Of a stretch of DNA of 64,000 nucleotides, positions 4,929-32,665 are shown one piece after another. Origin of the DNA: a virus (taxonomy: Duplodnaviria; Caudoviricetes). The position numbers and the translations under genes are program-made. Positions within the stretch are counted from its first letter, which is position 1. Each line of letters starts with the position of its first letter. The notes below the pieces were generated by a model, which saw nothing but the letters and a program-made list of their open reading frames with translations, was not told the origin of the DNA and made no database searches. The stretch covers positions 1 through 64,000 of IMG/VR virus record IMGVR_UViG_3300035428_000130. The stretch is one strand, 5' to 3'.

Positions 4929-5508
4929 CTAAATTTCCTTTTCTCTAAATTGCTTCAGTTCTTCCAGCCACGTTGCCAATTGCAAATGCTCTTCGGCACA
5001 TTCACTGCATCCCAATTTTTTAGCAACATCATGACAATGCTCAATTGCTTCTGATAATGTCATTTTTGCCATAGGCTCACTCCTAAAAATGACCACCATA
5101 CTTGGAAATGGTGCAGAGTTCTTTCCATCTCCAAATTTCAACCGTCCACGAATGAAGCGGATTTCTACATTTGGCTTCTGGTATATGTAGTCGTGGAAGT
5201 AGCTGGTATCGGTTCTGGCTGGAATCAATAACACAATTGTTGTTCCAGGTTTCTTTGCTTCTTCCGAGCATTTCTTTACCCAGTCTTTTACCGCTCTGCC
5301 ATATGGCGGATTGCAGAAGACGGTCTGCCCCCCCCCAGCACTGTTCAAGTCCATTATCCTCTTCTGTAAAATACTTTTCACATTTATGGTTGAACTCGTC
5401 GGCACAGGGGTCAAGGGTAAAGTGAAACTCATCATCCAATTTGTCAAAGAAATTCTGTGGTGTCGCCCACTCCATTGATTTTGACGAAAACATTACTTCA
5501 AGATTGAT
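4929..5508 (-). pseudogene. Phage Dam-type N6-adenine MTase, frameshifted (OFF) at a G9 tract
   Basis: EWATPQ...LDPCA in one frame and NPPY...IPARTDT...GRLKF in another; G8 instead of G9 at 5328-5336 gives WGGQTVFCNPPY. Confidence 0.88.
5328..5336 (-). repeat. G9 tract (coding strand), OFF state of the Dam-type MTase
   Basis: C9 on the + strand at the frameshift point. Confidence 0.85.
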
Positions 5509-5531
5509 TACGCTTCACCTCATAATTTGAT

Positions 5532-6359
5532 TTACACCCAAGCTGCTTTTGCTGTATTCAGCATAAGCATTGCTCTTGTCATCGGGCCAACGCCACCAGG
5601 AACTGGAGTATATGCGGAAGTCTTTTTATAAACGTCAGGATCGCAGTCTCCACACAGCTTCCCATTAAGATTTCTGTTCATACCTACATCAATAACAACC
5701 GTACCCTCTCTTACTGCGTTTGGCCTAATAATTTCAGCCCTACCTACGGCAGAGATTAAAATATCAGCAGTCCTACAGATATCAATTAGTTTCCTTGTAT
5801 GTGAATGACATACTGTAACAGTAGCATCATTTTGAAGAGCCAGCATTGTCATCGGTTTTCCTACGATATTAGATCTTCCAACAATTACACAATGTTTGCC
5901 CGATAGACAAATACCATAATATTTCAAAAGCTCTACAATACCACCAGGAGTACATGGAAGAAAGTGTGGGTTTCCTTGGAGCAAAAGGCCGATGTTGTGT
6001 GGGGTAAAACAGTCTACATCTTTGCCAGGAGAAATTGCATTAACCACACGTTTTGGATCAATATGCTTAGGTAATGGCATTTGAACCAAAATCCCATCAA
6101 CGTGTGAATCGAACGAAAGAGTAGAAACCAGATCTACAATCTTTCTTTCCGATGTATCTTCGTCAAGAAGGTATTCTTTGCTAATGAATCCACATTGTTC
6201 ACAATCAGCTTCCTTGTTTCTAACATAAATCTGAGAAGCAGAATCATTACCAACTAACACAACAGCCAGACAAGGCCGACGCCTCTCACTTTCTGTCTTC
6301 AATGCAAGCTCTTCCTTAATTTCATTAGCCACTCTTTTGCCATCTAAAACAATTGCCAT
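5532..6359 (-). CDS. folD: Methylene-THF dehydrogenase/cyclohydrolase
   Basis: YVRNK, ILVQMPLP, KDVD, PCTP, VGRSNIVGKP, TPVPGGVGPMT. Confidence 0.95.
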   Translation of the reverse strand: MAIVLDGKRVANEIKEELALKTESERRRPCLAVVLVGNDSASQIYVRNKEADCEQCGFISKEYLLDEDTSERKIVDLVSTLSFDSHVDGILVQMPLPKHIDPKRVVNAISPGKDVDCFTPHNIGLLLQGNPHFLPCTPGGIVELLKYYGICLSGKHCVIVGRSNIVGKPMTMLALQNDATVTVCHSHTRKLIDICRTADILISAVGRAEIIRPNAVREGTVVIDVGMNRNLNGKLCGDCDPDVYKKTSAYTPVPGGVGPMTRAMLMLNTAKAAWV

Positions 6360-6370
6360 ATTTACCTCTC

Positions 6371-6742
6371 TCACAGCTTTTTGTGCATGGTGTACCTTTT
6401 CACACGCACATCAAGTTTCTTTTCTTTGGCGACTTTTATCATATGCTTGGTTCCAGGAGAATTGCCGTCCCAAAAAGCTACAAGCGCATCAGCGTATTCC
6501 GCCATTTGCACATTGCGTTTGTAGCCAGCAGATTTACCAAATGTATCCCAGTCTGCTGGCATATACCTAATACGGTAGCCATGTTCTTTTGCATACTGTT
6601 CTCCTAAACGATCAGCTCCACGGGCCATTCCGCACACAATTTCAATATCGTCTATAACGTTTTTCAAAAGGTAGTCGAGACTGGCAGCAAGCCCTTTATA
6701 ATTATTGAAGTCCCTACCACCAGCCACGATCACCTTGAACAT
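6371..6742 (-). CDS. SLOG/DUF2493-like protein
   Basis: VAGGRDF, GMARGAD, AGYKRNVQMA, FWDGNSPGTKHMI. Confidence 0.8.
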   Translation of the reverse strand: MFKVIVAGGRDFNNYKGLAASLDYLLKNVIDDIEIVCGMARGADRLGEQYAKEHGYRIRYMPADWDTFGKSAGYKRNVQMAEYADALVAFWDGNSPGTKHMIKVAKEKKLDVRVKRYTMHKKL

Positions 6743-7204
6743 AAATCAATTCTTTGATGGTGCTACTGAAGGAATTCTCGCAAGTCCTGTACCGTGACAA
6801 ACTTCACACCTTCGCCAATCAGTCGGATCATTGGGATCTGGTCTATCATCTTCGGCACAGGCTCGGCTTCTCAAAACCTTGCCCTCACCACCACACGCCT
6901 CACATGCCGTATTAATTCTTCGCAATTCGGTAAGGCTTCTTTTATATGGTGCAATTTGAGCGGCAAATTCACCTTCCATTTTTGAAATCTGATGTTCTAT
7001 CTCACGAATTGCCGGAACTAAATTCAAGGTATTAGAAGTAGCTTTCATCTTCAAATCCTTCCTCGCATCCTTTACAAAGAGACTCAGGATAATCACCAGT
7101 TCCACACTGCGTCCAATATCCGCACTCACATTGAATATCGCACACATCTCCGCATTGAGTGACTGTGATTGTAGCTCCACAACGACCAACACAACAATAA
7201 TCCA

Positions 7205-7996
7205 TTATGCGGTTTCCTCCAATCTTTGGGCTGCTACATCAGCCCAAGCCATACCGAAATATCGGCTCTTTTTATTATCGCAAATGCCGTTATCCATGCC
7301 TATGTAGTGACGGCCCTCCAGTTTGGCGGCAATTAAAGTTGCTCCACTGCCACAACAGTTGTCCAGCACTACCCCCCCCTGGTCGGTGTATGTACGAATG
7401 GCATAACGACATAGTTCAACGGGCTTTTCGGTAGAACTGATTGCTATTGACGGATGAGGCTTGGGGAATTCCCAAATAGAGGTTGGATGCTTTAAGTCGC
7501 CTGGGGTTTCCACAACTTTATAAGCTCCATAGACTCTATTGTTAGAAATATCTTCTGCCTGACTTCCTATGGCCTTGCCCTTACTATGGTTTGGAGCGCC
7601 TTTAACCATCTGAGGATGATAGATTGGCTGCTTCTTATAAAAAACCATGATATCTTCATGTTCACGCAAAGGCATACGATTGGCGTTAAGAAAGCCACTC
7701 TTTAACACCTTTCGCCAGATGATGTTATAACGATGGAGTTTTTCATTTGACAACATCATTTTTGCAGTAAACTTATCTTGACCAAAAAGGAGAATTGCGC
7801 CATTTGGTTTGATGATTCTTTCATATTGCTCCCAAAGCTTATCTGGAGGAATTACAACATCCCAAGGATTTTTTGTAACTCCGTAGGGCAAATCACAAAG
7901 AATCATGTCAATAGACGCATCTGGAATTAGGGCCATACCATCGAGGCAGTCGATATTATGAACGCTATCTATCTCAATTGTCTTTGGCACTAACAT
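7205..7996 (-). CDS. Beta-class N4-C/N6-A DNA methyltransferase (in frame, internal G8)
   Basis: DLPY catalytic motif, HEDI, TEKP, LDNCCGSG SAM motif. Confidence 0.9.
   Translation of the reverse strand: MLVPKTIEIDSVHNIDCLDGMALIPDASIDMILCDLPYGVTKNPWDVVIPPDKLWEQYERIIKPNGAILLFGQDKFTAKMMLSNEKLHRYNIIWRKVLKSGFLNANRMPLREHEDIMVFYKKQPIYHPQMVKGAPNHSKGKAIGSQAEDISNNRVYGAYKVVETPGDLKHPTSIWEFPKPHPSIAISSTEKPVELCRYAIRTYTDQGGVVLDNCCGSGATLIAAKLEGRHYIGMDNGICDNKKSRYFGMAWADVAAQRLEETA
7372..7379 (-). repeat. G8 tract in MTase (ON)
   Basis: CAG GGG GGG GTA = QGGV. Confidence 0.75.
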
Positions 7997-8166
7997 GACT
8001 CCAATCAAATATAGTCTTACATATCTCGCTGTCCGCAAACATACCAGCCAAGAGTGGCACAGCGCACTCATGCCCAAAGTCACACCACCATGCGCACTCT
8101 GGCTGACATTTAGTATTGCGGATTGGACAAAGCTTTTCTTTGTACTCGTCCATTATCCGCCTCCAA

Positions 8167-8183
8167 ATGAATTAGTTAATCTC
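8167..8183. promoter_or_regulatory. Repeated AT-rich motif, copy 1
   Basis: ATGAATTAGTTAATCTC. Confidence 0.6.
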
Positions 8184-8184
8184 T

Positions 8185-9252
8185 TTAGGCCGCTTTTTTA
8201 CTTCCAAATTCGATTACATGCTGTCCGTCAGTCGATCCCATCCCGCCATTGCGAACACCGCTCGCTGTATCAGAATAAGCCAACCCATACGGGAGGAAGA
8301 TTCCTTGCATGAAAGCATCGCCAGCCTTTACCGTGACAGTCTTTTCTTTGCCATCATTCGTGATTTTGGCAAAAATATGTCCCTCATTGTCTGAGTTATA
8401 ATAATCGCTGTCAATTACGCCAATAGTATTGTCGAGTTGGACACGATATTTAAACCCAAGTCCACTTCTGGGAACACAGGCCAGCCACCAACCATCAGAA
8501 ATCTTCACACGAATACCAGTCGGAAGTTTGATTGATTCTCCAGGAGCAAGCGTAAAGTCAAATGGCGCTCTGAAATCATAACCAGCGGAACCACTGGTTG
8601 ATCTGGTAGGCAGTTCAAGCGCATGATACATCTGGGTAATACACCTCAACATAGCTTCGTCCGTAGCAGGGACAAAGGGCTTGATATTGTTATAGAACTC
8701 TTCAAAGCCTACTTTCTCAAAAGCGCCTATACGCTGGACTCTCTTTGCACCCCCCTCTTTGGCCTCAGTCAATCGAGTGCGCCGCCAGTAATTCTTCATC
8801 TTATAAGCAGGATTGTCGGTAACATCCTGAACGAAAAACGGAAGAGGACTGAAATTTTGTGCGGCCTCAACGTCTGGGAACTCGATCTCTGCATACATAA
8901 ACTCTGTATTGCTTCCCTTATCAACAAGGGAGCATTCCAGCTCCAGTTCGTCGGGGAGCTGGTAGATGCGAAAATCTTTCAGAACAAAAGGATGCTCAAC
9001 GGTTTCAGCCAGGGCATAAAATTGTTCCTTGGAAATATGCAACTCAACTTCCTGCCGCACCAACTTACCGCCAGACTTAATGGCAAGGAAATATGCTACA
9101 TCTTGCCCTTGTACCACATTGCGGCGAATTCTTACTTCTGGATCAATGGACAGATAAGCTTGATATACCTGGAATTCCTCTTTCAGAGGAAGATCGGTTG
9201 GAAACGAATTGATAAGAAACTTGCGTTCAATTTCCATAAAATTACTTTGCAT
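8185..9252 (-). CDS. dut: CYTH-domain / trimeric dUTPase fusion
   Basis: EIERKF...EIEF (CYTH), then SAGYDF, PRSGLG, GVIDSDY, RNGGMGST (dUTPase). Confidence 0.88.
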   Translation of the reverse strand: MQSNFMEIERKFLINSFPTDLPLKEEFQVYQAYLSIDPEVRIRRNVVQGQDVAYFLAIKSGGKLVRQEVELHISKEQFYALAETVEHPFVLKDFRIYQLPDELELECSLVDKGSNTEFMYAEIEFPDVEAAQNFSPLPFFVQDVTDNPAYKMKNYWRRTRLTEAKEGGAKRVQRIGAFEKVGFEEFYNNIKPFVPATDEAMLRCITQMYHALELPTRSTSGSAGYDFRAPFDFTLAPGESIKLPTGIRVKISDGWWLACVPRSGLGFKYRVQLDNTIGVIDSDYYNSDNEGHIFAKITNDGKEKTVTVKAGDAFMQGIFLPYGLAYSDTASGVRNGGMGSTDGQHVIEFGSKKAA

Positions 9253-9754
9253 AGGCGTTCTCCCACAATACTATATTTCCACATTGAAGTGACTGCTGCA
9301 CATCAATGATTCTTTGATTACGGCTTCCTTTATAAGAAAGTGTCATGTCTCTTTGCTCCAACACAAACCTACCATCGACAAGCACGTCACATTCACTCAA
9401 AAGCTCTAACATTTCACTGTTTTCCAGTATTTCTCCATAGGTAAAACCTGAGTAAATCCATACTGTGACATTCTTATTGGTCTGCCGCAAAGCCTTTATA
9501 AACGGCGTTATTTTGCTTGCACTATACATAGGATCGCCACCGCTTAGTGTAAGACCTGAAATAAACGGAGTTTTGTTAATATAGGCTATGATTTCATTTT
9601 GGAGCTGTTCAGTAAATGGTTGCCCCACAGTAAAAGAGTGGGAGGTGGGGTTGTGGCATCCCTTGCAATTATGTAAGCATCCACTTACATAAATCACAAC
9701 CCGTACCCCCTCACCATCAGCAACCGATTCAAAGTTGATTCCGGCTACGTTCAA
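9242..9754 (-). CDS. nrdG: Anaerobic RNR activating enzyme
   Basis: CLHNCKGC, LSGGDP, GSRNQR. Confidence 0.95.
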   Translation of the reverse strand: MNVAGINFESVADGEGVRVVIYVSGCLHNCKGCHNPTSHSFTVGQPFTEQLQNEIIAYINKTPFISGLTLSGGDPMYSASKITPFIKALRQTNKNVTVWIYSGFTYGEILENSEMLELLSECDVLVDGRFVLEQRDMTLSYKGSRNQRIIDVQQSLQCGNIVLWENAYAK

Positions 9755-11997
9755 TTATTGCGCCGCTCCGTTGTTCCAAAATCGGTATAGCTACTATGCT
9801 TCACCCGATCCAGGCACTCCTTAATTTTACCAGCGTTAAAATTGCGATAATCTGTAGTCAGATATCCAGTCACACGCCGTAGCCGCTGAATTTCTGTATT
9901 GCCACATCGAGGACAGTTATAATCAATCTCGCCCTGATAGCCGCACTTCAAACAGGAGTCGATAGGGAAGTTGAACGCCAAATAGGGAATATCCAAACTC
10001 ATGGCGTAGTCAATGATATCTTCCACGGCCTTTTCGTTCTGCATAATAGAGCTTTCAAGCTCAATATAGGTAATGCAGCCACCCGTGGGGAATTTACAGA
10101 ACGGAGCTTCCAAATCAAGCTTTTTGTAGATTGATACCTTCTGCCAAACTGGAATATGGTGTGAATTTGTGATATACTCGCGGTCAGTCACATTCTTGAT
10201 ATTACCGAACTCCTTCTTCAGAGCCTCCGCATATGTGTAGCAAAGATTCTCAGCCGGAGTCGCATAGCAGGAGAAATTCAACCCATGCTTTTCGCTGGCC
10301 GCTTTGCAGAAGTCGGAAATATGCTCAACAACACTGAGCGCAAACTTCCAAACCTCTGTGTCCTCAGAGTGATCCTTACCAAACATGGCCTGGCACATTT
10401 CCGCAATGCCGATATATCCTACCGCAAGAGTACCATGCTTCATAGCCTCATAAATACCCTTAAAGCTGGCTTTCTCATAATCCGCAACAGTGCCATTCTG
10501 GTACATAAACTTGGCTGAAGCGACAGACTGCTTACAAACGTGATAGAACCGATCAATCAAGGAAAGCTCTGTCAGATGCAGAACTTCATCCAGCTCTGCC
10601 CAGAAGCCATCAATATCGGGAGTTTCCCTCTCACCAAGACAGATACCATGCTTAATACCAATCTTGGGCAGATTCATTGTTGTGGGGCAAACATTGCCAC
10701 GGCCAACTTTGGAATAGCCAAGACCGTTCCGGTCGTATCCCATCAATGTCCGACAGCCCATAGTAGCCATCTCTGTATCGGGATCGCCAGGAGTTTCAAC
10801 ATTCTGGGAGTAGCCGCAGTTTACAATGTTGGGATAAATCCTCTTGCACAGAGAGCGAATGGCGAGTTTCTTGATGTCGTAGTTCGGATCACCAGGATTG
10901 GCATTCACACCCTTCTTGTATTTGAAAATACTAATTGGGAAAATGGGAGTCAGATAGTATTTTCCAATACCCGCCATACTTGCATCCATCAACCAGCGAG
11001 AAACCATACGACCCTCAATGGATTTGTCTGTACCAAAGTTGATTGAGGTGAAGGGGATTTGCGAACCAGCGCGGCTTTCCAAGGTATTCAGATTGTGATA
11101 GAGACTCTGAGCAGCCTGTTTGCCCTCACGCTCCAGCATATCAAGCGCATACTGATAGATAGCGCTATCCTGCTTGAAATACTCATCATCAATAGACAAC
11201 CATTCATTTTTGGCGTGAGTAATGATAGTCTCAAGCTCATTCTCAGGCAGATTTCCAATATAGCGGCAACCATCAGCATAATGCTTATAAAAGCTCTTCT
11301 TCACAAAGAGAGCCAAGTCATAGTCCAAATGGCAAGAAGCTACTCCGCCATACTGCACCTGGCTTTGGATCTGGAAGATTACCGCAATAAGCTGGCAAGC
11401 CGTTGAAAAACTATTTGCAGGCCGTACATCACCATTTCTGGTAGTAAAACCATTGTTGAGCAGTCTCTGGAGATCGACAAACAGACAGTTGTGAGAACCA
11501 ATGTCGTATTCAGACAGATCATGCAAATAAATTCGAGATTCACGGTGCGCTTGGGCAACCTCAGGTCGAATAAAGACATTCAGAGCAATATTCTTATGAA
11601 GGATATTGGCACTCTCAAATTTTCGTCCACCAAAGGAATACTCATCAACATTTGCGTTCTGATTCTTAACGTTGTTGCACAAAAGGATATCTTCAATCTT
11701 CTTGTTCAACTCGTTATTGCGCTGCCGCTCTTGGTTGCGCTTTTCACGGTACTTGATATAGGCTTTGGCAGTCTTCTTGCAATGGCTGTTCATCAGGCCA
11801 TCTTCAACCATGTCCTGAATCTGCTCCACATCAATAGTACCGCTGAATGTAGAATTTGCGATTTTACTGGCAACCCGCAAAGCCACCGCTTCATCTACTT
11901 CATCTGTTTGAGCCATAGCTTTTGAGATTGCACCCACAATTTTACTCGCATCAAATGGCTCTACACGTCCGTCACGCTTTTTGATTTCTGTAATCAT
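9751..11997 (-). CDS. nrdD: Anaerobic (class III) ribonucleoside-triphosphate reductase with ATP cone
   Basis: KKRDG ATP cone, MGCR, TPAE, YITNS, CxxC...CxxC, RVTGYL glycyl radical loop. Confidence 0.96.
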   Translation of the reverse strand: MITEIKKRDGRVEPFDASKIVGAISKAMAQTDEVDEAVALRVASKIANSTFSGTIDVEQIQDMVEDGLMNSHCKKTAKAYIKYREKRNQERQRNNELNKKIEDILLCNNVKNQNANVDEYSFGGRKFESANILHKNIALNVFIRPEVAQAHRESRIYLHDLSEYDIGSHNCLFVDLQRLLNNGFTTRNGDVRPANSFSTACQLIAVIFQIQSQVQYGGVASCHLDYDLALFVKKSFYKHYADGCRYIGNLPENELETIITHAKNEWLSIDDEYFKQDSAIYQYALDMLEREGKQAAQSLYHNLNTLESRAGSQIPFTSINFGTDKSIEGRMVSRWLMDASMAGIGKYYLTPIFPISIFKYKKGVNANPGDPNYDIKKLAIRSLCKRIYPNIVNCGYSQNVETPGDPDTEMATMGCRTLMGYDRNGLGYSKVGRGNVCPTTMNLPKIGIKHGICLGERETPDIDGFWAELDEVLHLTELSLIDRFYHVCKQSVASAKFMYQNGTVADYEKASFKGIYEAMKHGTLAVGYIGIAEMCQAMFGKDHSEDTEVWKFALSVVEHISDFCKAASEKHGLNFSCYATPAENLCYTYAEALKKEFGNIKNVTDREYITNSHHIPVWQKVSIYKKLDLEAPFCKFPTGGCITYIELESSIMQNEKAVEDIIDYAMSLDIPYLAFNFPIDSCLKCGYQGEIDYNCPRCGNTEIQRLRRVTGYLTTDYRNFNAGKIKECLDRVKHSSYTDFGTTERRNN

Positions 11998-13596: not shown

Positions 13597-13611
13597 ATAG
13601 TTTCCTCCGCA

Positions 13612-13628
13612 ATGAATTAGTTAATTTC
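13612..13628. promoter_or_regulatory. Repeated AT-rich motif, copy 2
   Basis: ATGAATTAGTTAATTTC, just upstream of the thyX RBS. Confidence 0.65.
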
Positions 13629-14228
13629 TATGTAACAGAAATATGTTGTGGTGCCAAGTGGCTCATCATAATACTCATGGTAAACGCCATCGCCCTGCTT
13701 AAAGTTTGCTTGGAAAACAACATTCGCAGGCAGAAGACTACCATCTTCCAGAAGCCTTTTTGCATTTGCAATAGTTCGCTCATCTGGCGTATTATTGATT
13801 GCTCCAGACCAAGTTGGAGAGTATTGCCCTTTTGCATAGATAACATCATAAATGTTATCTGGGAACAAATCACTTTCTACACGATTCAATACAACGCTGC
13901 CTACATAGAGCTGTATGTCATCTGGAATCCATTCACACCCTACTTCGGCAAAAATTAGCCGTGAAAGTAGATCCAACTCTTCCTCAGTATAAGTTGGTTC
14001 AACCTTAATCTCGACTGGCTCGTTTTCGGCAACAGCCATCGTTTCAATAGGGGGGGGTAGGACGGCCTGGGAGACTGGAACTGCTGTAACAAGGGGCTGA
14101 ATATCAACCAGCTCAATATCATACTGAGGCTGATATGTATGTGCTGAGATACCAACCCCCGTTACTGTTACGGCAACCAATACTCCCAGGCAAACCGCCG
14201 TTATCCTTAAAATGTGTTTACTTCTCAT
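13617..14228 (-). CDS. SleB-like cell wall hydrolase (Hydrolase_2) with N-terminal signal/TM
   Basis: LLSRLIFAE, VGSVVLNRV, FPDNIYDVIY..GQYSP; C8 tract at 14050-14057 is in frame. Confidence 0.85.
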   Translation of the reverse strand: MRSKHILRITAVCLGVLVAVTVTGVGISAHTYQPQYDIELVDIQPLVTAVPVSQAVLPPPIETMAVAENEPVEIKVEPTYTEEELDLLSRLIFAEVGCEWIPDDIQLYVGSVVLNRVESDLFPDNIYDVIYAKGQYSPTWSGAINNTPDERTIANAKRLLEDGSLLPANVVFQANFKQGDGVYHEYYDEPLGTTTYFCYIEIN

Positions 14229-14248
14229 GCTGCTACGTCCTTTCTTGT

Positions 14249-22270: not shown

Positions 22271-22333
22271 TGTGCTTACCTATTGGAGAGCGGGCGGGCT
22301 ATACTATCCAGTACAGTCACGCCCTTTGTAAGA

Positions 22334-22822: not shown

Positions 22823-22846
22823 TGTGTTTGCTCCTTCTTTTGAAAT

Positions 22847-22910: not shown

Positions 22911-22917
22911 TAATGAT

Positions 22918-22945
22918 AGTATAGCAGATTTTTGAGATTTGTCAA
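22918..22945 (-). promoter_or_regulatory. SigA-type promoter driving the replication operon
   Basis: TTGACA-16 bp-TATACT with extended TG. Confidence 0.75.
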
Positions 22946-22959
22946 GCGATTTTCAGAAA

Positions 22960-23152
22960 TTATTCCAACTTTTCAATCAAGCAAATCCCAATATTTGAGG
23001 CTGTAATAGTCGGGCAAATTTCTCCACTCTCTTGTACCCGACCACGCCTTGTTTTGCTTTGAGGGTAAGAAAGGTCAACAACCCCCCCCCACCCGGCATT
23101 CAATAAAGCCTTGCTTCGTGGCCTGTTTAATCAGCACTGTCTCGTCGTTCAT
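22960..23152 (-). pseudogene. Stand-alone C5-MTase target-recognition (TRD-like) module, OFF at G9
   Basis: G8 at 23082-23090 gives MNDETVLIKQATKQGFIECRVGGVVDLSYPQSKTRRGRVQESGEICPTITAS...; G9 stops early. Confidence 0.7.
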
Positions 23153-23907
23153 AAACTACTCCTGGCGGATTGCCATGGATTTGCGCTCGTAATGTCGGAC
23201 AGTCTTCCTTAATCACACAGCGCTTGCCAACCCGCCCTTGGGGATCAACAATACCTAATGGTGTTTCCGACTCTGCCTGTACTCTATACCATCCAGTCTT
23301 TGCACCCCCCCTCCAGCCTCAGCTTTCAGGGCGCGAGCAATGGTATTCCCATTATAAATACGGTTTGCATCTCCGTTATAACCGTTTATGTAACCAAGTT
23401 GTTCAAGCTCCAAATTCTGAGCTGGGGCAATAGTAGCTGTACTGTCTGGTGTAGCATTGTTCAAACGCTGCAAAGCTTTCTCAAATGCTCCAATTCCACT
23501 AAAAAACGAGCCTACCTCAATGTCTTCAAACAAATACGGCATAGCTTTATACAGCTCTTCCATAATATGCTGAAGCACATCGACAACAATAGAATTGCCA
23601 GCCTGTTTATATAGCTGAGAACCAGACCGATCCTTGCCGTCATACAGCTTTTCATTCATTCTGTCTCTGGCCCGTTCATAATCGAGGTCATCAAACCCCA
23701 TTAATCTCCAGCATTCTTTTTGTGTAAGCTTCCTCACACGATAGGCTGGCCGCTTTGTAATACTCATATCTTCCAATTGTGTATCATTCGCCTCCATAAC
23801 TAATTGTCTCCGTTTCTTTTCAAGATACTGTTCAATTGTAGTGCCCTTATAATAATTGGCATCAATACAATATGATACGGGGGGGTGGAGAAGATAACGT
23901 TATTCAT
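23127..23907 (-). CDS. C5-cytosine MTase subunit with motifs IX-X-I and flanking TRD-like modules; two frameshifting tracts (in-frame core 23255-23797)
   Basis: RKLTQKECWRLMGF, YKQAGNS, FFSGIGAFE; C8 at 23879-23885 adds SYCIDANYYKG, G8 at 23305-23311 adds GGGGAKTGWY...CPTLRAQ. Confidence 0.8.
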
Positions 23908-24778
23908 TTTTTACAATCACACCTGTCATTTGTTGATTTCCAAAACCCTTATAATCTCTCGCTAACAGCGTCATTGCTGTGTCGCTTAATCCATCGAACT
24001 GACTACCTTTTTTACTCAACTTCACTCCGCTCTGTAACCAAGTCCCAGGAGTGTCGGTCTGTTGATCCCCGTCCGCTGCTTCTAACTGTGTTAGTGATTG
24101 CGCGAAGCGGGGGGGGGCGATAAGCTGAGCTACCTTATCATCGCTCAGATAATAGCGCTCATCAACATTGGTTTCAAGCATATCTGGCAACGACTTTTTC
24201 AAAGGCAGAGGTTCTGGAAATTTGAATTGACCGTTATCTAAGTCTTTACGAATGATGACACAATAAACCCGCTCTCTGTTCTGAGGAATACCATAGTGTT
24301 TTGCATTGAGTACCTGCCAATAGACATTATAGCCGTAGTCCTCCAGCTCCTTCACGAATAAATCAAAGGTCTGGCGAAAACGTGCGCCTACAATATTTTT
24401 AACGTTCTCATAGATGGCAAAACGGGGCTTCTTTTCTCTGAGAAAACGCAACCATTCAGCAAGCAACGATGATCGGGTTTTGTCAATTTCTGTTGATCCG
24501 CATTGGGGACATTTATCACGTTCTGCATAGTGGGCTTCCAAGGGGTTATATGTATGGCCGCAAGTTCTACATGTCCATGCTACCCCCCCCTGCTTGCCCG
24601 CTATCGAGAAGTCCTGACAAGGGCTTCCGCCAAACATTACATTGAAATCAGGCACTTTCTTTTCGTCAGCCTTAGTAATATCTCCAATGTTAAGTGACGG
24701 ATTTACACCATGAACCGCACAATAGCTTTCTGCGGCATACTTGTCAAACTCGCAGAACAAGACAGTTTTGAAATCTAT
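23900..24778 (-). CDS. C5-cytosine MTase catalytic subunit (motifs II-VIII + TRD), probable ATA start
   Basis: CEFDKYA, GGSPCQDFS, ENV, PQNRERVY; no motif I; G8 at 24583-24590 and C9 at 24109-24117. Confidence 0.88.
   Translation of the reverse strand: MDFKTVLFCEFDKYAAESYCAVHGVNPSLNIGDITKADEKKVPDFNVMFGGSPCQDFSIAGKQGGVAWTCRTCGHTYNPLEAHYAERDKCPQCGSTEIDKTRSSLLAEWLRFLREKKPRFAIYENVKNIVGARFRQTFDLFVKELEDYGYNVYWQVLNAKHYGIPQNRERVYCVIIRKDLDNGQFKFPEPLPLKKSLPDMLETNVDERYYLSDDKVAQLIAPPRFAQSLTQLEAADGDQQTDTPGTWLQSGVKLSKKGSQFDGLSDTAMTLLARDYKGFGNQQMTGVIVKNE
24109..24117 (-). repeat. C9 tract selecting alternative MTase C-termini
   Basis: G9 on the + strand; all three frames translated by hand. Confidence 0.75.
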
Positions 24779-24794
24779 AAAAATTCCTCCTTAT

Positions 24795-25535
24795 CTAAAT
24801 GGGTACACAAGTTGGCATTGGAGAAAGCTTGTGAAGATTGCGCAGATGTAATGTTAGAATCTTTGCATCAACATCTTCACTGCCAGACGTTCCATACATA
24901 ATATAGTCATCAAGCTGGGTATAGGTAAAACCTAAGTTGTCCTCATCGGTTTTTCCACACAGCCCGTCAGATGGAACTTTGTCTACCAAATCGGTAGGAA
25001 GTCCAAGCTCGTGGCCGATTTGAATAACTTCATGCACCATCAAATTGGCAAGGGGACTAAAATCGCCAGCACTGTCACCATATTTGGTAGAATAACCTAC
25101 ATAATCCTCAGAGCAGTTACAAGTGTTGGCAACACGTCCGCCATTAGGCAAAGATTGAGAAATCGCATAGAGCATTGCCATACGGATACGAGCAGGCAAG
25201 TTCACCTTCGTTTGCTCCTTGACATCCATATAGACATCAATTTGGTCGATCATGCGCTGTACTTCATGGGAGATGTTGGTGTAAATGTATCGGATTCCTA
25301 AGTGCTGAATCAACCGTTTACTATCATCCAAATCTGATTGCTCACCGTTTGGCATCATTACCCCTACTACACGATTTTTGCCAAGCGCTTCTACGCAAAG
25401 TGTAGCAACAATACTGGAATCCTTACCACCGGAAATGCCGACTACAGCATCGCAAGTAGGGCCGTTCTCCTTAAAATAATCTCGTATCCAATTGACAATA
25501 TAGTCTTTTGTCCGTTTAGGGTTTCCCAACATCAA
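24795..25535 (-). CDS. nadE: NH3-dependent NAD+ synthetase
   Basis: GISGGKDSS, NLPARIRM, SE..VGYSTKYGD, KVPSDGL, TDEDNLG. Confidence 0.93.
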   Translation of the reverse strand: MMLGNPKRTKDYIVNWIRDYFKENGPTCDAVVGISGGKDSSIVATLCVEALGKNRVVGVMMPNGEQSDLDDSKRLIQHLGIRYIYTNISHEVQRMIDQIDVYMDVKEQTKVNLPARIRMAMLYAISQSLPNGGRVANTCNCSEDYVGYSTKYGDSAGDFSPLANLMVHEVIQIGHELGLPTDLVDKVPSDGLCGKTDEDNLGFTYTQLDDYIMYGTSGSEDVDAKILTLHLRNLHKLSPMPTCVPI

Positions 25536-27046: not shown

Positions 27047-27071
27047 TGTCCGATTCCCTCTTTTCATTGAA

Positions 27072-27857
27072 TTATTTACAAATGGTAATCTTATCATGAC
27101 TGATACGCAAGATACTGTCTGTAGTAAACACATGAGAAATAAGGCCGTCAGTCAAAACAGTCCCGTCTAAGATTGTATTCTCACAATGAGTAACATACAG
27201 TAGAATCTTTTCAGCGCCAGCCGCTTTCAACGCTTTGGCCGTATATGTAAAGGTGCCGCCGCGAGAACAGATATCGTCCACGATCAGGATGTTTCTACCA
27301 GCAACCTTCTCGGGAGTTGTCAGTTCCGTTCGCTCAATTTTACCAGTACGCCAATCACGGTGCTTAATACAGAAGACATATTCCATAGGAATCATCTCAG
27401 AATACCGCTTGGCAGCTCCCTCGTCTGGATAACACAACAAAGAATTCATTTCCTGGCTTACCATAAACTGAATCGGCTGGTTGATGTAGTATTTCACATC
27501 CATGACCTTTACGTTGTTAATGAGCGCCGTCGCCACATTTGAGTGTGGATCAAGCACACGGACAAGTCTGAAATTGAGTGAATTGATGAAATCAGCAAAC
27601 CATTTAAGTGTGAAAACTTCGTCGCTGTTTTTCACCCGATCCATTCTGGCGTTTGGAATATACGGCATATTCAAATACAAATCGTCAATGCCCATAGCTC
27701 TCAAGTGTTTTACCAAATACAGGAGGTGCATACATTCGGCATCGTTGTCGTACTTCCAACTAATGTTACAAGTACCCGCCTCCAAGCCAAAACGAAATGA
27801 CGATGTACCATCAGGAAAATTGGTGAAATTGACGTTTCTTCCATTGACAAGAATCAT
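27072..27857 (-). CDS. prs: Ribose-phosphate pyrophosphokinase homolog (Prs/Adps-like)
   Basis: FPDG, PYIPNARMDR, DPHS, PDEGA, VDDICSRGGTF. Confidence 0.88.
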   Translation of the reverse strand: MILVNGRNVNFTNFPDGTSSFRFGLEAGTCNISWKYDNDAECMHLLYLVKHLRAMGIDDLYLNMPYIPNARMDRVKNSDEVFTLKWFADFINSLNFRLVRVLDPHSNVATALINNVKVMDVKYYINQPIQFMVSQEMNSLLCYPDEGAAKRYSEMIPMEYVFCIKHRDWRTGKIERTELTTPEKVAGRNILIVDDICSRGGTFTYTAKALKAAGAEKILLYVTHCENTILDGTVLTDGLISHVFTTDSILRISHDKITICK

Positions 27858-27858
27858 C

Positions 27859-28404
27859 TTAGCCCTCCCAATTCTCTACATTGATTTGACACATCTTCAT
27901 AACCGCCAGAGCATTGGCATGACTCTCAGGAGTTACACCAGCACAACAAGCTGCATCAACGGTAATCTTAGCTTCTGGCAGAAAAGCCCTGAGAAGCAAT
28001 GCGTTGGAAATCACGCAGATGTCGGTACAAAGGCCGACCAGAACGATCTCGTCAATATGCCATGCCGTTTTGCTTTTGATGTGTAGGTATTCACCCAGCT
28101 CGGCAGAGCCAAACGTCTTCTTTTCAAATGTAGAAGACCACGCTCCATTGTCCAGAAGAGCATTGAAAAGGACATCGGGAACACACCACCCAGAAGTTTT
28201 CTTAATGCAATGCTCAACGGGAAGCAGTTTTCCCTCTTGCGTTTTCAGGTAGTCCTTATCATGGGTATCCATGGTCAAAACGATTTCGCCATAAGATTCC
28301 TTGGCCTTTTCGATAACCTTAGGCAAAATTGCCTGTGCTTCTTTGGTTCCAAGTGCGCCGTCGATGAAATCATTTTGCATATCAACGATAACTAAAACTT
28401 TCAT
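27859..28404 (-). CDS. pncA: Nicotinamidase (isochorismatase family)
   Basis: VDMQNDF, DTH, HC, K, GLCTDICV (D-K-C triad). Confidence 0.85.
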   Translation of the reverse strand: MKVLVIVDMQNDFIDGALGTKEAQAILPKVIEKAKESYGEIVLTMDTHDKDYLKTQEGKLLPVEHCIKKTSGWCVPDVLFNALLDNGAWSSTFEKKTFGSAELGEYLHIKSKTAWHIDEIVLVGLCTDICVISNALLLRAFLPEAKITVDAACCAGVTPESHANALAVMKMCQINVENWEG

Positions 28405-29153
28405 TTTGCAGCAACCCCTTTTATTTTTTCGCTTGCAAATCGTTTTTCCAGCTCAAAAATCCCTTTTGGCTGTCCCTTATAGTAGCCTTTGAATGGCCGC
28501 TGGATTTGATGCTGAAGACATTTCAACTTCTCCCAATATGATGGAAGATGTTGATATATGTTTCTTAGTTCTGTCAGGTTTTTGTTACAACAGCACCAGC
28601 AAGAAACACGACTAAGTACAGTATATAAGTCGATCTGACCAGCGGGAGTATCTTCATACCAATGCCAGCCTCGATCATAACAGTAATTCAAACAATCTTG
28701 CTCTGTCATTCCCCAAGTAACAAGCGGAAACGTCTTTCCCTCAGACTTTGCCTTTTCAAACCGCTTTGGTTCGTCTGCGGCGATCCCTACATAATCCACA
28801 ACCATATCACCCAAGGATTGTTTGAATTTCTTTATGGCTTTGAGTTTGTCAGTTGTTCCCCAACGACATAGACCGCCACACCAACCATAACCATAGTGTG
28901 TTCCTTTTTGCTTGCTTTGCACCTTGCGTTCAAGCATTGAATACAAAAACGGTTCCTGAGGTTTCAGTTCGACATAAGCAATTCCGTTTTGCTTTAGCCA
29001 AGGCTTGATCTTATCTCTGATACGATAGATTGCCTCAAATTCCATTTCTGTGTCATAAAACAGAACAATATCCAGCGGCCATTTTTCCTCTACCAGCCGC
29101 AATAACATGGCGAGAGAGTCCTTGCCAAAACTTACACTTGCGATGTGCTTCAT
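28401..29153 (-). CDS. PAPS-reductase-family (PP-loop, Fe-S) protein
   Basis: SFGKDS, WCGGLC, GIAADE, RVSCWCC. Confidence 0.8.
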   Translation of the reverse strand: MKHIASVSFGKDSLAMLLRLVEEKWPLDIVLFYDTEMEFEAIYRIRDKIKPWLKQNGIAYVELKPQEPFLYSMLERKVQSKQKGTHYGYGWCGGLCRWGTTDKLKAIKKFKQSLGDMVVDYVGIAADEPKRFEKAKSEGKTFPLVTWGMTEQDCLNYCYDRGWHWYEDTPAGQIDLYTVLSRVSCWCCCNKNLTELRNIYQHLPSYWEKLKCLQHQIQRPFKGYYKGQPKGIFELEKRFASEKIKGVAAK

Positions 29154-29283
29154 ACTGACCACAACCGAATCCGGCTGAGGTCAACTGCCTAATCCTCCCA
29201 TGCTCGCTTGCGCTCACGCTGTAACAGGCAGCTTTACCATGCACTTATCAATCTTACATGAACCTGGTTTACCAGGATTGGTA

Positions 29284-29559
29284 TTAGCTCCTTCCGTTGT
29301 TATTATTTGTCTGTGAACTCTTGAAGTAACGTCCGATTGTTGCCAATGTTGCGCAGGCCAGAGGAATAAAATCTGGTGTGAAACGTGTCGTGTCAAACAT
29401 CAGGTTCATGCCAGCGGCAATTGTGTCGCCCACACACATTTTCAGTAGTACCCCCCCCACCCACGCAAGGCCGAAGGTGATAACTGGACTAAACACCAGC
29501 AGTCCAATTACTCCCACGATAATTGTGAGAACGCCCACAGTTTCTAACTTATCTTTCAA
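29284..29559 (-). CDS. Small membrane protein with an in-frame G8 tract (29451-29458)
   Basis: AAGGAGG RBS, TTG start, hydrophobic segments. Confidence 0.6.
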   Translation of the reverse strand: MKDKLETVGVLTIIVGVIGLLVFSPVITFGLAWVGGVLLKMCVGDTIAAGMNLMFDTTRFTPDFIPLACATLATIGRYFKSSQTNNNNGRS

Positions 29560-29622
29560 TGCACAGTCCTCCTTATGATTTTGTAGGGATCTATTATAGC
29601 TACCCGACTTCAACTTCATCTG

Positions 29623-30149
29623 CTAACTGCATTTTGAAATTTCTTCAAACACAATTTGCTTTGGAAGCATTTTATGACAGACATAAACACTGCTAAATGG
29701 TGGATTAAGCGATGGCTTTTGTTCTGCATAGTCTTTGAAATATGATATACGTTTGTTCATATACATAATTTCAAATTCATTCTCCTTGAACATGTCAAAC
29801 CGTGCCTTGCTTTCAAAAAGCCCTACCACACCGACCAACATAGCAAATGGAATATTAAGATCGAATAGCTTTTGTAGCACAGCTCCTTTTAAGGAGTAGG
29901 GCGGATTGCTAATTATGTAGTCACACTTCGGTGGTTCATGCGTAAAGAAATCCTGCCCGCTGGAAATATGTGTAGCAATCACTGTATATCCAAGTTCCTG
30001 AAATCGTTTTACAAACAAGCTATCCTCTGTATCAAAAGGGCACCAAATTACTGCGGGGGGGGTGCAAGATACTTCTCAATAGGAGCAATTGCATAGGCTG
30101 GTGTGTAAAACTCATCATTTCCACTGCCAGCAACTTTATCCATTTTCAT
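29623..30149 (-). pseudogene. Small adenine MTase, frameshifted (OFF) at C8
   Basis: NDEFYTP...APPPQ* upstream, WCPFD...DFF...ISNPPYS downstream; C9 or C6 at 30055-30062 restores the frame. Confidence 0.85.
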
Positions 30150-30161
30150 CAAATACCACCT

Positions 30162-30776
30162 TTACAACCATTTGATAGATGGAACACCAGTATATCCGAG
30201 TTCCCATACGAACCAAGCGAAACACATTGTACTGGCCCAAGGTTTACCTTTTTCATCAACTTCCATTCCGTTTCTCAATGGGTTTACACGTTTAGAAAAC
30301 ACGTATACTGTTTTGGGTGGATATTTCGCAAAAAATTCCTTGCGTTGAATCCCCTCAAGAAACTGAATTTTTGCAAACATAATTACCTTATCAGTAGATA
30401 TCAGCAATGCTTTCTCCACAAACTCTTTTGCCAAAGAAAACGGTGGATTAGTTATTACATTGTTGAATTTCTCAGGATATAGCGTGGTAAGGAAATCCAC
30501 CCCCCCCACAATGTTGCACCCAAACCGATCTTCACGTTGTACCAGGTCGGTAGACACAATCTTATTATCTGGATAATAGTCTCGAACAATTTTGCTGATA
30601 TGTCCTTCTCCAGCAGCAGGTTCTAAAATTGAACCGTTGAAGTGTTCCTGATCTAAAATGGCCCGTGTTGCATCAAACGGGGTGGCGTAAAAATCATTTT
30701 CAGCTCGTAATCGAGTCAGAGACATACCAGCAAGACTTGTACCACCTAAGTATTTTCTGTTATCTATATTTATCAC
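30162..30776 (-). CDS. Small adenine MTase (in frame, G8 at 30500-30507)
   Basis: DFYATP, LEPAAGEG, DFL, TNPPF, AWFVW. Confidence 0.85.
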   Translation of the reverse strand: MINIDNRKYLGGTSLAGMSLTRLRAENDFYATPFDATRAILDQEHFNGSILEPAAGEGHISKIVRDYYPDNKIVSTDLVQREDRFGCNIVGGVDFLTTLYPEKFNNVITNPPFSLAKEFVEKALLISTDKVIMFAKIQFLEGIQRKEFFAKYPPKTVYVFSKRVNPLRNGMEVDEKGKPWASTMCFAWFVWELGYTGVPSIKWL

Positions 30777-30787
30777 TCCTTGAATTG

Positions 30788-31747
30788 TTATTCTGTTGTA
30801 ACACCAATGTAGTCAAGTACAGTTTTCATCCCTAAACCATGTTCTTCCCACGGCCTCATACAGTAACTCCACAGCTTTGGATGAGTGATTTTCAAGCGCT
30901 GAAAACGGTTTGGAGCCTTTTCCAAATGAGCACCAAAGGCACAAAACACACAGCCTGTACGCTGTTCTCCTGTAGTGCTCCACCCCCCCCCGTCAGTTCT
31001 GACTATATCGCCATAAACAGACGCATAGGGGATGTTGTATGTATAGAGGTATTCAAGAACATCGGCTGCAGTCCAGAAAGACATAGGCTGAGAACTGGGA
31101 GCTTTCTTTGAGAATGCGTTGCAGCCTTGGCGGAGCCATGTTGATCGTCTTGATCTGCTTTCGTCGGCCATAGTTGCGATAATCGGCACACGTCCAGATT
31201 TTTTCTGATACTTTTTCATAGGCCGTTTCTTCATCACATCACAACAGCGAGACGATACCTTAAACGGAGCATTCAAAAGATAGCACCATTTTTCACAATT
31301 AAACTCGGATGGCGTACCATTACTACGAGTGATTTCACCATGAAGCTCTTTCCAACGAAATGTTCCAGGCTTATGTCCATACTCCACCGTGTCCACAACT
31401 CGTTTTGATACCACAGGATATCCATAAGTTTCAATAACCTTACGGAAATTCATTTCAGGTTTTACGACAACAACATTTTCCTGGCTTAAAGCAAACTTCC
31501 GAACCTCTGGAAATTCCAGGCCAGTATCAGCAAATACAGCAGGGACATCAGGATAAAGCCTGCGTACAATATCCAAAAGTACGGTTGAGTCTTTGCCACC
31601 AGAAAAGGCTACATATACCTGGCCGTTATAATACTCGTACCATTCAATAATGCGAGTCGTGGTTACTTGAATTTTGTGCTGAAGATCCCACGACTGCATT
31701 ATTGCTAAATCTTCTTTGCTATAAATAGTTAATACCTTCCCCTTCAT
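30788..31747 (-). CDS. PAPS-reductase-family protein (in frame, G9 at 30983-30991)
   Basis: FSGGKDSTVLL, DTGLEFPE, RCCDVMKK, RTGCVFC. Confidence 0.85.
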   Translation of the reverse strand: MKGKVLTIYSKEDLAIMQSWDLQHKIQVTTTRIIEWYEYYNGQVYVAFSGGKDSTVLLDIVRRLYPDVPAVFADTGLEFPEVRKFALSQENVVVVKPEMNFRKVIETYGYPVVSKRVVDTVEYGHKPGTFRWKELHGEITRSNGTPSEFNCEKWCYLLNAPFKVSSRCCDVMKKRPMKKYQKKSGRVPIIATMADESRSRRSTWLRQGCNAFSKKAPSSQPMSFWTAADVLEYLYTYNIPYASVYGDIVRTDGGGWSTTGEQRTGCVFCAFGAHLEKAPNRFQRLKITHPKLWSYCMRPWEEHGLGMKTVLDYIGVTTE

Positions 31748-32665
31748 TTAGTGGGCTAACAAATCAGCCCTATGCAGCAACATCACATCCGAAAATGTAT
31801 TGTCACCAACCAGCCGCCTAAATTTATCCGTCGCTCTTTTTGAACGCGGATCTCTCTCCAATTCAAATGGACGCATATGCCACTGAATCACATTTGCGAT
31901 ATAGAGACGGTTCAGTGCAGGGTTACTATAAAAGAGACTGTCGTAAGCAGAGACATGATGATGTTCGTAATAGTGAGCAATCTCAGTTGTCTCACCCTTG
32001 CTATTTACAAATGATTTGGTGAAAGGCTTTCCAATATCATGGAGTAAAGCCGCCTCTTGTAACTCAGGGGAGGTAGAGGCAAGCTGCTTATAGGTGGCTA
32101 AACAATGTTGCCCGATAGAATATGTATGATGTGGATTATCATGAGGAATTCGATTAAGGCCAGTTCCATCTTTATTGAACAACTCATTTACATCAAAACG
32201 AAATGCCTCTTGCGGATAAACAAGCTCAATACGATCCCAGCCCTCATAGTAATAAGGAATCCAAATGCTCTTATACATACGGGCCATAACTTCATAAGGA
32301 ACTTCTCTATCACGATGCCTATTGCGGTCAATACACATTTCAAAAGGAGTTGCCATAAAAACACAAACCTTCTGGCAATCAAACTTATTGAGTGTTTGCA
32401 AAAATTCATGCCGCCGCTTATAGTTGATGTTCGTAGCGTCATAAATGGTGTTATGACCCAAACGAATGTCTTCTTTGACACGAGTGTGAAGCACATCAAA
32501 AACTTTGGCATTTTCATCTTGGCGATTCACATCGCCCAGAATTTCCACCCTAATTGCATCACTGGAATGCACATTAGCGTGAAATTTCTCTGTCAGTTCC
32601 TTGGATTTGTCTGTCTTACCCCCCCCAGGCAGACCTACCATCATAAAGAAAATTGGCTTATCCAT
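31748..32665 (-). CDS. P-loop polynucleotide-kinase-like + HD domain protein
   Basis: GLPGGGKT Walker A (G8 at 32619-32626), DATN, HH...H, LHDIGKP. Confidence 0.85.
   Translation of the reverse strand: MDKPIFFMMVGLPGGGKTDKSKELTEKFHANVHSSDAIRVEILGDVNRQDENAKVFDVLHTRVKEDIRLGHNTIYDATNINYKRRHEFLQTLNKFDCQKVCVFMATPFEMCIDRNRHRDREVPYEVMARMYKSIWIPYYYEGWDRIELVYPQEAFRFDVNELFNKDGTGLNRIPHDNPHHTYSIGQHCLATYKQLASTSPELQEAALLHDIGKPFTKSFVNSKGETTEIAHYYEHHHVSAYDSLFYSNPALNRLYIANVIQWHMRPFELERDPRSKRATDKFRRLVGDNTFSDVMLLHRADLLAH

Follow-up and report, generated by a model that had tools for sequence, protein, structure and literature searches.

Does a run of seven to nine identical bases inside a methyltransferase gene mark a damaged gene, a misread one, or a switch? 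The question is raised by the first 64 kb (hereafter the window) of the 100,965-bp IMG/VR viral record IMGVR_UViG_3300035428_000130 (CheckV completeness 75%), in which homopolymers of G or C are concentrated in DNA methyltransferase (MTase) genes. We put at roughly three chances in four the explanation that these tracts are selected, hypermutable frameshift switches (simple-sequence contingency loci) of an SPbeta-like temperate phage of gut Oscillospiraceae. On our best reading the switches gate five MTase genes, including a split and permuted cytosine-5 (C5) MTase with multiple target recognition domains (TRDs). A phase-variable MTase set was the core claim of a first-pass annotation of this DNA, made from the sequence alone, and it is now supported by the conservation of the tracts, the hypermutability of their lengths, their bias in gene content and the intactness of the genes that are switched off.

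G/C tracts in the DNA-modification genes

A direct scan of the window found 13 G/C homopolymers of at least 7 nucleotides (nt), all of them 7-9 nt long (Table 1), reproducing exactly the positions and lengths given in the first-pass annotation. The absence of runs from the right half of the window, which it had also noted, holds as well: there are 0 runs of at least 7 nt between 32.7 and 64 kb, and 0 in the other 37 kb of the contig. All 13 tracts are thereby confined to 27% of the 101-kb contig, the early region at 5.3-32.6 kb. The spectrum of G/C run lengths over the contig is bimodal (234 runs of length 4, 36 of length 5, 2 of length 6, 2 of length 7, 7 of length 8, and 4 of length 9), and no second mode was seen among the A/T runs of the contig. 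The formal enrichment test that had been proposed gives 11 runs of at least 8 nt, against 1.1, 0.9, and 0.43 per 101 kb expected from Markov simulations of order 0, 1, and 3, respectively; the earlier estimate of fewer than one such run by chance in 64 kb was about right. An order-5 model, which expects 5 such runs, was discarded as circular because it learns the tracts themselves. Every gene between 1 and 36 kb is on the minus strand, and all 13 tracts lie inside reading frames on that coding strand, where nine are poly-G (Gly-Gly-Gly) and four are poly-C (Pro-Pro-Pro).

Genes bearing tracts were assigned by Pfam and PHROG scans, and the frames on either side of each tract were read directly. 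Nine of the 13 tracts fall in MTase open reading frames (ORFs), with one in a Dam-family MTase, one in an N6_N4 MTase, five in a C5 module, and two in phrog_799 MTases. The other four are in a phosphoadenosine phosphosulfate (PAPS) reductase-like gene (PAPS_reduct), a Hydrolase_2 gene, an unannotated 111-aa ORF, and an AAA_33/Pnk+HD gene. These scans return the nine MTase tracts and the one PAPS-reductase-like tract counted by the first-pass annotation. Were MTases to occupy as much as 15% of the coding sequence, nine of 13 would still have a binomial P of ~1e-5.

Frame reading places five tracts (5328, 23082, 23305, 23879, and 30055) at frameshifts that a change of one base would repair, which agrees with the number claimed earlier. 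The joining changes are G9 to G8 at 5328 and at 23082, G7 to G8 at 23305 (where the change extends the frame), C7 to C8 at 23879, and C8 to C9 at 30055. A sixth tract, at 24109, selects among three downstream readings. With frames matched to Pfam or homologue alignments, a change of +/-1 switches the downstream frame between full-length and truncated, which we refer to as ON and OFF. The Dam-family MTase is OFF here, as its G9 splits two Pfam halves that G8 would join, and so is the first phrog_799 MTase, where C8 is present and C9 is needed to join the frames. Among the genes that are ON, the tract of the N6_N4 MTase lies ~8 codons upstream of motif I, and motif IV of the second phrog_799 MTase was read directly as NPPF.

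Table 1. Tract-bearing genes of the window, with tract starts (length in nt) and tract bases in coding-strand sense.
Feature	Coordinates	Strand	Tract start (length)	Remarks
Dam-family N6-adenine MTase (PF05869)	4929..5493	-	5328 (9)	Pfam halves in two frames meet at G9 tract 5328-5336
N6_N4 DNA MTase (PF01555)	7205..8083	-	7372 (8)	In-frame G8 at 7372-7379; ON
Cell-wall hydrolase (Hydrolase_2 / endolysin-like)	13617..14228	-	14050 (8)	In-frame C8 at 14050-14057
TRD-only mini-ORF (SKTRRGR motif)	22963..23152	-	23082 (9)	Split by G9 at 23082-23090; G8 joins; OFF
C5 MTase ORF-B	23130..23906	-	23305 (7), 23879 (7)	PF00145 E 1e-11; ATG (23906) overlaps ORF-A stop
C5 MTase ORF-A	23900..24790	-	24109 (9), 24583 (8)	PF00145 E 8e-49; C9 24109-24117; G8 24583-24590 (in frame)
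Unannotated 111-aa ORF	29284..29619	-	29451 (8)	In-frame G8 at 29451-29458
DNA MTase (phrog_799; weak PF05869)	29623..30149	-	30055 (8)	C8 at 30055-30062, ~30 codons from start
DNA MTase (phrog_799, E 1e-57)	30162..30776	-	30500 (8)	In-frame G8 at 30500-30507; ON
PAPS-reductase-like protein (PF01507, phrog_424)	30788..31747	-	30983 (9)	In-frame G9 at 30983-30991; ON
Polynucleotide-kinase-like P-loop (AAA_33) + HD	31748..32665	-	32619 (8)	In-frame G8 at 32619-32626; ON

Conservation, length change, and selection among relatives

Relatives were collected with ORF-A of the C5 module as query, which yielded 80 IMG/VR loci and 58 genome loci with 10-kb flanks each; searching again with the N6_N4 MTase added the Dam and 7372 sites. 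With the 80 IMG/VR loci taken together, the distribution of G/C runs is bimodal as well, with 279 at length 5, 31 at length 6, 61 at length 7, 152 at length 8, 100 at length 9, and 12 at length 10. The comparison with related prophages, which the first-pass annotation had also proposed, shows tracts conserved at orthologous codons but variable in length. They recur in ~55 related phages and prophages whose flanking synonymous sites are saturated (synonymous divergence, dS, >1): the same codon position carries a G/C run of 7-10 in 16-39 relatives per site, while the flanking third positions differ. At site 24583 the relatives have G8 (30 cases), G9 (5), or G7 (4), and at 24109 they have C9 (20), C8 (11), C10 (3), or C7 (1). 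For 23082, mapping to the window site gives 13 G8, 13 G9, and 5 G7, and a tally by sequence cluster gives 17, 16, and 2; the corresponding counts for 30055 are 11 C8, 4 C9, and 1 C10 by mapping and 14, 6, and 1 by cluster. The PAPS-reductase-like tract at 30983 maps as G8 in 15 relatives, G9 in 8, and G10 in 2, and its cluster tally (n=33) comprises 19 G8, which is out of frame, 11 G9, 2 G10, and 1 G7. At the Dam site, 16 orthologues have G9 and 2 have G8. The hydrolase family has a C7/C8 tract in two relatives too.

Tracts of different length can have flanks that are identical or nearly so, and where the flanks differ they do so mostly at synonymous positions, the run itself remaining uninterrupted. 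That the runs persist at dS >1, in a genome in which only 16% of Gly codons are GGG and only 19% of Pro codons are CCC, implies that the homopolymer itself is under selection. Interruption of the runs by synonymous codons in orthologues had been named beforehand as an outcome that would speak against switching. It was found at 7372 only, where 14 of 24 orthologues encode the same spot without a run and 10 of 24 have G8 or G9, and not at the other sites; the 7372 tract is a clade-specific gain.

Tract lengths change between genomes far faster than the surrounding sequence. In pairs of loci at least 97% identical, 85 of 195 G/C runs of at least 7 nt differ in length (44%), compared with 3 of 19 A/T runs of at least 7, 4 of 127 G/C runs of 5-6, and 3 of 1860 A/T runs of 5-6 (0.2%). 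Two loci with 0 substitutions in 13.3 kb (L002 and L003) differ at 2 of 9 tracts, and two that are 99.8% identical (L017 and L030) differ at 5 of 7. Pairs <0.02% divergent differ at 10% of tracts and pairs 0.02-0.6% divergent at 40%, and from 0.6% upward the fraction reaches a plateau of ~50%. Relative to other indels, changes in tract length are about two orders of magnitude faster. Length calls are reproducible, since 18 of 20 tracts are identical between independent assemblies of the same strain (pairs <0.02% divergent); the same run lengths are likewise listed for L023, L024, and L025. The rise and saturation of the differing fraction with divergence are what a real and very fast mutational process would give, and not what random miscalls would.

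The relatives carry 7-15 tracts per genome, and in five complete relatives most of these cluster around the MTase module. Of 357 tracts in 55 close loci, 278 are in MTases, 46 in PAPS-reductase-like genes, and 33 elsewhere, so that ~91% are in MTase or PAPS-reductase-like genes. The MTase tracts divide into 237 in C5 genes (236 in the C5 module and 1 in a second C5 gene), a share inflated by the centring of these loci on the C5 MTase, and 41 in other MTases (phrog_799, N6_N4, D12 Dam, MT-A70, and Dam). Tract positions over the whole contig are free of this bias. The remaining 33 include tracts in RNA ligase, hydrolase, and Pnk-HD genes and in a family of unknown function.

Because ORF length alone is unreliable as a caller of ON and OFF states near gene ends, frames were set by homology. 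The core tract of ORF-A is in frame in ~80% of genomes, and accessory genes are ON in 27-46% of relatives. The sequence downstream of out-of-frame tracts is under purifying selection, with ratios of nonsynonymous to synonymous divergence (dN/dS) of ~0.1 for the PAPS-reductase-like gene, 0.15 for the TRD mini-ORF, and 0.17-0.34 for the phrog_799 MTase, at dS of ~1 or more. Downstream of the PAPS-reductase-like tract 64 codons are open in 32 of 33 genes and 70 in the other one, with dN/dS of 0.06-0.11 in this tail, and in OFF phrog_799 alleles the downstream ORF has 141-144 codons in 15 of 16 cases. Comparisons of OFF alleles with one another give dN/dS of 0.11, 0.16, and 0.34 at mean dS of 0.8-1.5, values close to those of ON-ON pairs. 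For the Dam gene, which G9 puts out of frame in 17 of 19 genomes, the downstream dN/dS is 0.026 at dS ~1. A second PAPS-reductase paralogue (cluster 7) has dN/dS of 0.5-1.0, at low dS and in few sequences. Taken together, the OFF genes are neither decaying nor pseudogenes, and their intactness means either that ON variants are regularly selected or that out-of-frame alleles are leaky.

From its gene content, the phage itself is SPbeta-like and temperate. This assignment is made because the contig encodes a YonO-type RNA polymerase of the RNA-dependent RNA polymerase (RdRP) family, 45% identical to SPbeta YonO, a large serine recombinase with DUF4368, and PolIII alpha, among other hallmarks; primase-helicase, NrdD/G, ThyX, and an NAD-salvage cluster are also present. 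Complete relatives are 127-144 kb long and are recorded as proviruses or with terminal repeats. When 13 kb of the window was searched by megablast among isolate phage genomes no match was returned, and the classification rests on protein searches. The YonO-like protein has 930 aa (PF05183, the eukaryotic-type RdRP family) and lies beyond the window (L082:10838-13630, corresponding to contig 94838-97630); relatives of it are also found in phages of Clostridium, Enterocloster, and Thomasclavelia.

At 76-87% identity, the nearest C5 MTase relatives belong to Oscillospiraceae prophages, including those of cultured isolates. Tract-bearing isolates are Dysosmobacter segnis BX15, Hominicoprocola fusiformis CLA-AA-H269, Oscillospiraceae 50-58, and Clostridiales bacterium CCNA10, the last with a complete genome. 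More distant C5 relatives (50-66%) occur in Lachnospiraceae. A generally poly-G-rich host chromosome was ruled out as the source of the tracts by CCNA10, whose 3.56-Mb chromosome has 22 G/C runs of at least 8 nt, with 7 of them in the 20-kb MTase region of the prophage. Run counts from draft genomes were not used, being inflated by long poly-G stretches, several of them near contig ends. Base composition was ruled out by the Lachnospiraceae prophage relatives, which have no tracts at 42-43% G+C, compared with 44% for the window. Missing mismatch repair in the hosts cannot be invoked either, since the four Oscillospiraceae hosts and the Dorea control that were examined all have intact MutS_I and MutL_C, a point that counts against the switch explanation. 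The tracts are specific to the phage clade and not to the host or to base composition. As a separate observation, the few runs of at least 8 nt outside the CCNA10 prophage come in pairs, a few kb to ~20 kb apart (435118/439255, 678094/699865, and 65415/76744), and could mark more phase-variable loci or mobile elements.

Under the explanation that we prefer, an in-frame run of 7-10 G or C, encoding Gly-Gly(-Gly) or Pro-Pro(-Pro), would gain or lose one base at high frequency through slipped-strand mispairing at replication, and the downstream part of the gene would be thrown out of frame, or back into it, heritably and reversibly. Acting on 7-15 tracts over independent MTases (Dam-type, N6_N4, two phrog_799, and C5) and PAPS-reductase-like genes, this process should leave many different sets of active modification enzymes in a population of phages or lysogens, and the resulting range of methylation states may hedge against restriction (type I-III versus type IV). 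The steps that we infer are that replication slippage is the cause, that populations within a lineage are mixed, that methylation patterns change, and that bet-hedging brings a benefit against host defences. Several further points weigh against such switching. The lengths compared are those of different genomes, and the mixed lengths within a clone or lysate that define phase variation would be an extrapolation from them. Some states are skewed, the Dam tract being G9 and out of frame in nearly all genomes; the skew fits a favoured OFF state and would equally fit expression by recoding. The window tracts at 29451, 32619, and 7372 are missing in most or all orthologues and an RNA-ligase tract in the relatives is G8 in 11 of 11, so not every run need be a switch. 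The gene-class tally, as stated, overweights C5 genes.

Recoding is the main rival, though we regard it as improbable. Here the tracts would be of about fixed length, and RNA-polymerase slippage or ribosomal +1/-1 frameshifting would give a fixed, low ratio of long to short product. Homopolymers are slippage sites for polymerases and ribosomes alike, and such expression would account for the strongly constrained but mostly out-of-frame Dam gene as well as for the PAPS-reductase-like and phrog_799 genes, which are out of frame in most relatives yet conserved. However, the DNA length itself changes between near-identical genomes, and the direction of the required shift differs (+1 for the Dam G9; -1 for the G8 and C8 alleles at 30983 and 30055), so that no single mechanism fits. 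RNA-level slippage could still add leakiness without replacing switching at the DNA level.

A pure sequencing or assembly artefact, in which the tracts are real, conserved, and always truly in frame and the +/-1 differences are homopolymer miscalls, is distinctly unlikely. It draws on the error-prone nature of G/C homopolymers of 8-10 on several platforms, most loci being metagenome assemblies that could come from any platform, and it would make purifying selection on "OFF" genes the expected outcome of genes that are always ON. Miscalls would not, however, agree at 18 of 20 tracts across assemblies of identical strains, nor grow with divergence and then saturate, and the 3 differences among 1860 A/T runs of 5-6 are contrary to homopolymer noise of the long-read type. 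Isolate genomes, one of them complete, have the same pattern, and miscalling leaves both the upkeep of the runs against synonymous change and their clustering in MTases unexplained. Least of all do we credit neutral decay at non-adaptive hot spots, which is very unlikely: Gly/Pro-rich MTase motifs would seed runs that drift, in genes that are dispensable morons being lost. The tracts do encode GG/GGG or PP/PPP, common near MTase motifs and in TRDs, and the ON fractions of the accessory genes are near those of neutral drift between lengths 8 and 9. With GGG and CCC at their low shares of the Gly and Pro codons, such drift does not account for runs that stay uninterrupted at dS >1 in up to 39 lineages, for downstream ORFs that are intact under strong purifying selection, or for the in-frame core tract of ORF-A in most genomes; moreover, tract-less relatives encode the same enzymes without runs.

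The split and permuted C5 methyltransferase

Five of the window's tracts fall in the C5 module, whose parts are spread over three ORFs (Table 1). ORF-A, which is ON here, contains motifs II, IV (PCQ), VI (ENV), and VIII (QNRER) and a Zn-ribbon insert. Reading the three frames past its C9 tract gives TRD-b with C9, the current length, TRD-a with C10 or C7, and an immediate stop with C8. In ORF-B the C7 tract (23879-23885) occupies codons 9-11, and since C8 is needed the gene is OFF; beyond it come a TRD, motifs IX and X, and then motif I at the C-terminal end. A TRD-like extension of ORF-B is truncated by G7 at 23305-23311, and G8 would extend the frame to 23130. Direct reading thus finds the C5-MTase motifs IV, VI, VIII, IX, and X all present, in a non-canonical order in which motif I (FxGxG) follows motif X, both in the window and in all relatives inspected.

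In tract-less relatives the C5 enzyme is a single ORF of 450-730 aa, with motifs II and IV, the Zn ribbon, motifs VI and VIII, three to six TRD modules, motifs IX and X, and motif I in that order. The window is collinear with these single-ORF relatives in one frame, broken by the stop at 23900. Tandem TRDs in one polypeptide are found in the tract-less relatives and not in the window, where some modules lie past motif I. By this organization, the enzyme is a circularly permuted, multispecific C5 MTase. Precedents exist for both features, M.AquI being a split C5 MTase and M.BssHII a permuted one. The C5 MTases of Bacillus phages (SPR, phi3T, rho11s, SPbeta, and H2) share motifs IV, VI, VIII, IX, and X and several tandem TRDs, and ORF-A is 29% identical to the phage H2 and SPbeta-like enzymes over 96% of its length. 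The enzyme described here differs from them in that motif I follows motif X and in that, in the tract-bearing clade, it is divided among overlapping ORFs and the tracts lie at the boundaries of its modules.

All close relatives have a common layout. The catalytic core has a G tract past motif IV and a C tract past motif VIII; beyond the C tract, one frame encodes TRD-a and another a linker followed by TRD-b, so that the alternative frame of TRD-a overlaps the linker of a different module. The stop is overlapped by the start codon of ORF-B, with 1-3 tracts within its first TRDs, followed by motifs IX, X, and I. The module ends with a TRD-like segment bearing a G tract and a TRD mini-ORF, itself split by a further G tract. 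In the overlapping-frame region, the ratio of nonsynonymous to synonymous polymorphism (pN/pS) is 0.35 in the TRD-a frame, compared with 0.94 and 1.18 in the other frames, for the largest length class; in a second length class the pattern is less clear. Because TRD-a is constrained where the other frames are near 1, these values support, but do not prove, a choice between recognition modules by tract 24109. With positions in the core, at the boundaries of TRDs, and where ORF-B begins, the tracts probably gate single recognition modules as well as the whole enzyme. A bolder and more tentative proposal, which we think possible but somewhat doubtful, is that the C5 tracts form a frame-selecting code that decides which TRDs are translated, so that single-base slippage would shuffle specificity and create many cytosine specificities among the progeny of one phage. 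Such shuffling would be analogous to that of hsdS shufflons, but driven by homopolymers.

Three further features of the module were observed. The start of ORF-A (24765-24795) has a strong AAGGAGG ribosome-binding site without ATG, GTG, or TTG at the usual spacing; in-frame ATT and ATA are present there, the first standard start is a TTG (24760) 27 nt further downstream, and the start codon may be unusual. A near-consensus sigma-70-like promoter (TTGACA ... TATACT) at 22925-22965 directly follows the last TRD mini-ORF, suggesting that the MTase module ends a transcription unit. In the Dysosmobacter segnis BX15 prophage the counterpart of tract 24109 is C6 (L086:10644); relative to C9 this is one Pro codon fewer and in frame, which would lower slippage yet keep the TRD-b reading.

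Known systems and neighbouring genes

The arrangement resembles the phase-variable MTases, or phasevarions, of bacteria (Type III mod and Type I hsd genes of Haemophilus, Neisseria, Moraxella, Helicobacter, and Campylobacter) in its in-ORF repeats, its +/-1 slippage with heritable and reversible ON/OFF states, its several independently switching MTases per genome, and its conserved OFF alleles. The bacterial systems are chromosomal, whereas those described here are phage-borne, orphan Type II-like enzymes (Dam-type, N6_N4, phrog_799, and C5). Their families (PF05869, PF01555, PF00145, and phrog_799) are not those of Type III mod or Type I hsd, and as orphan Type II-like genes they do not fall under the label "phasevarion", which denotes a Type III or Type I system with an effect on a regulon. 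They are not known to affect a regulon of host genes. No res or hsdR family was returned by the Pfam and PHROG scans of ORFs at 1-36 kb, which did not take in every ORF. Campylobacter and Helicobacter are hosts without mismatch repair, unlike the MutS/MutL-proficient Oscillospiraceae.

Among phages, polyG tracts of 7-11 nt in Campylobacter Fletchervirus are described as giving phenotypically mixed progeny suited to variable hosts (Sorensen et al. 2021, Cell Rep 35:109214, as related in PMC12823448 and bioRxiv 10.1101/2025.10.21.683753). As related there, those tracts are in receptor-binding-protein genes of lytic phages; here they are in DNA-modification genes of a temperate phage. Contingency loci have also been described in T2 and T4, as slippage-prone phage repeats for bet-hedging (bioRxiv 10.1101/2025.10.21.683753). 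A single polyG tract in a methylase gene of Bordetella phage BPP-1 is noted without further study, according to the same preprint's account, in contrast to the 7-15 per genome in the multi-enzyme modification module described here, conserved over a whole phage clade. A recent review of the regulation of prokaryotic MTases mentions phage-encoded MTases but not phase-variable ones. While phase-variable MTases are textbook knowledge in bacterial pathogens, phage contingency loci have only just been described (Campylobacter phages in 2021, T-even phages in a 2025 preprint). The tracts described here belong to an entire clade of large temperate phages whose hosts are abundant gut commensals, and they are conserved, fast-mutating, and concentrated in DNA-modification genes. 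If the proposed switching is real, one prophage could release virions with many epigenetic "passports", with effects on the range of hosts, on escape from restriction, and on horizontal transfer in the gut; methylomes may differ among lysogens as well, and annotation pipelines would routinely mis-call tract genes as pseudogenes. The availability of cultured hosts makes the idea directly testable.

The C8 tract of the hydrolase encodes Pro-Pro-Pro within a linker. The 111-aa ORF has no Pfam or PHROG match, and its G8 tract was not found in relatives. The G8 tract of the Pnk-HD gene encodes the glycines of the Walker A motif and is not shared with relatives. The contig's only MTase without a G/C tract is an N6-adenine MTase domain fused to an SNF2/DEAD helicase (1037 aa, 57997-61110). 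Among relatives, a conserved 130-aa ORF with no Pfam or PHROG match (L027:1046-1565 and 12 other loci) has a C7-C9 tract ~40 codons from its start; at 10 of 13 loci the tract puts it out of frame, but dN/dS is ~0.15. An RNA-ligase-like gene (L020:5052-6506 and 10 other loci) is the one whose in-frame tract is invariably G8, unlike every other tract family. Together with the Pnk-HD gene and a nucleotidyltransferase gene (32665-33471), it looks like a tRNA-repair module beside the MTases.

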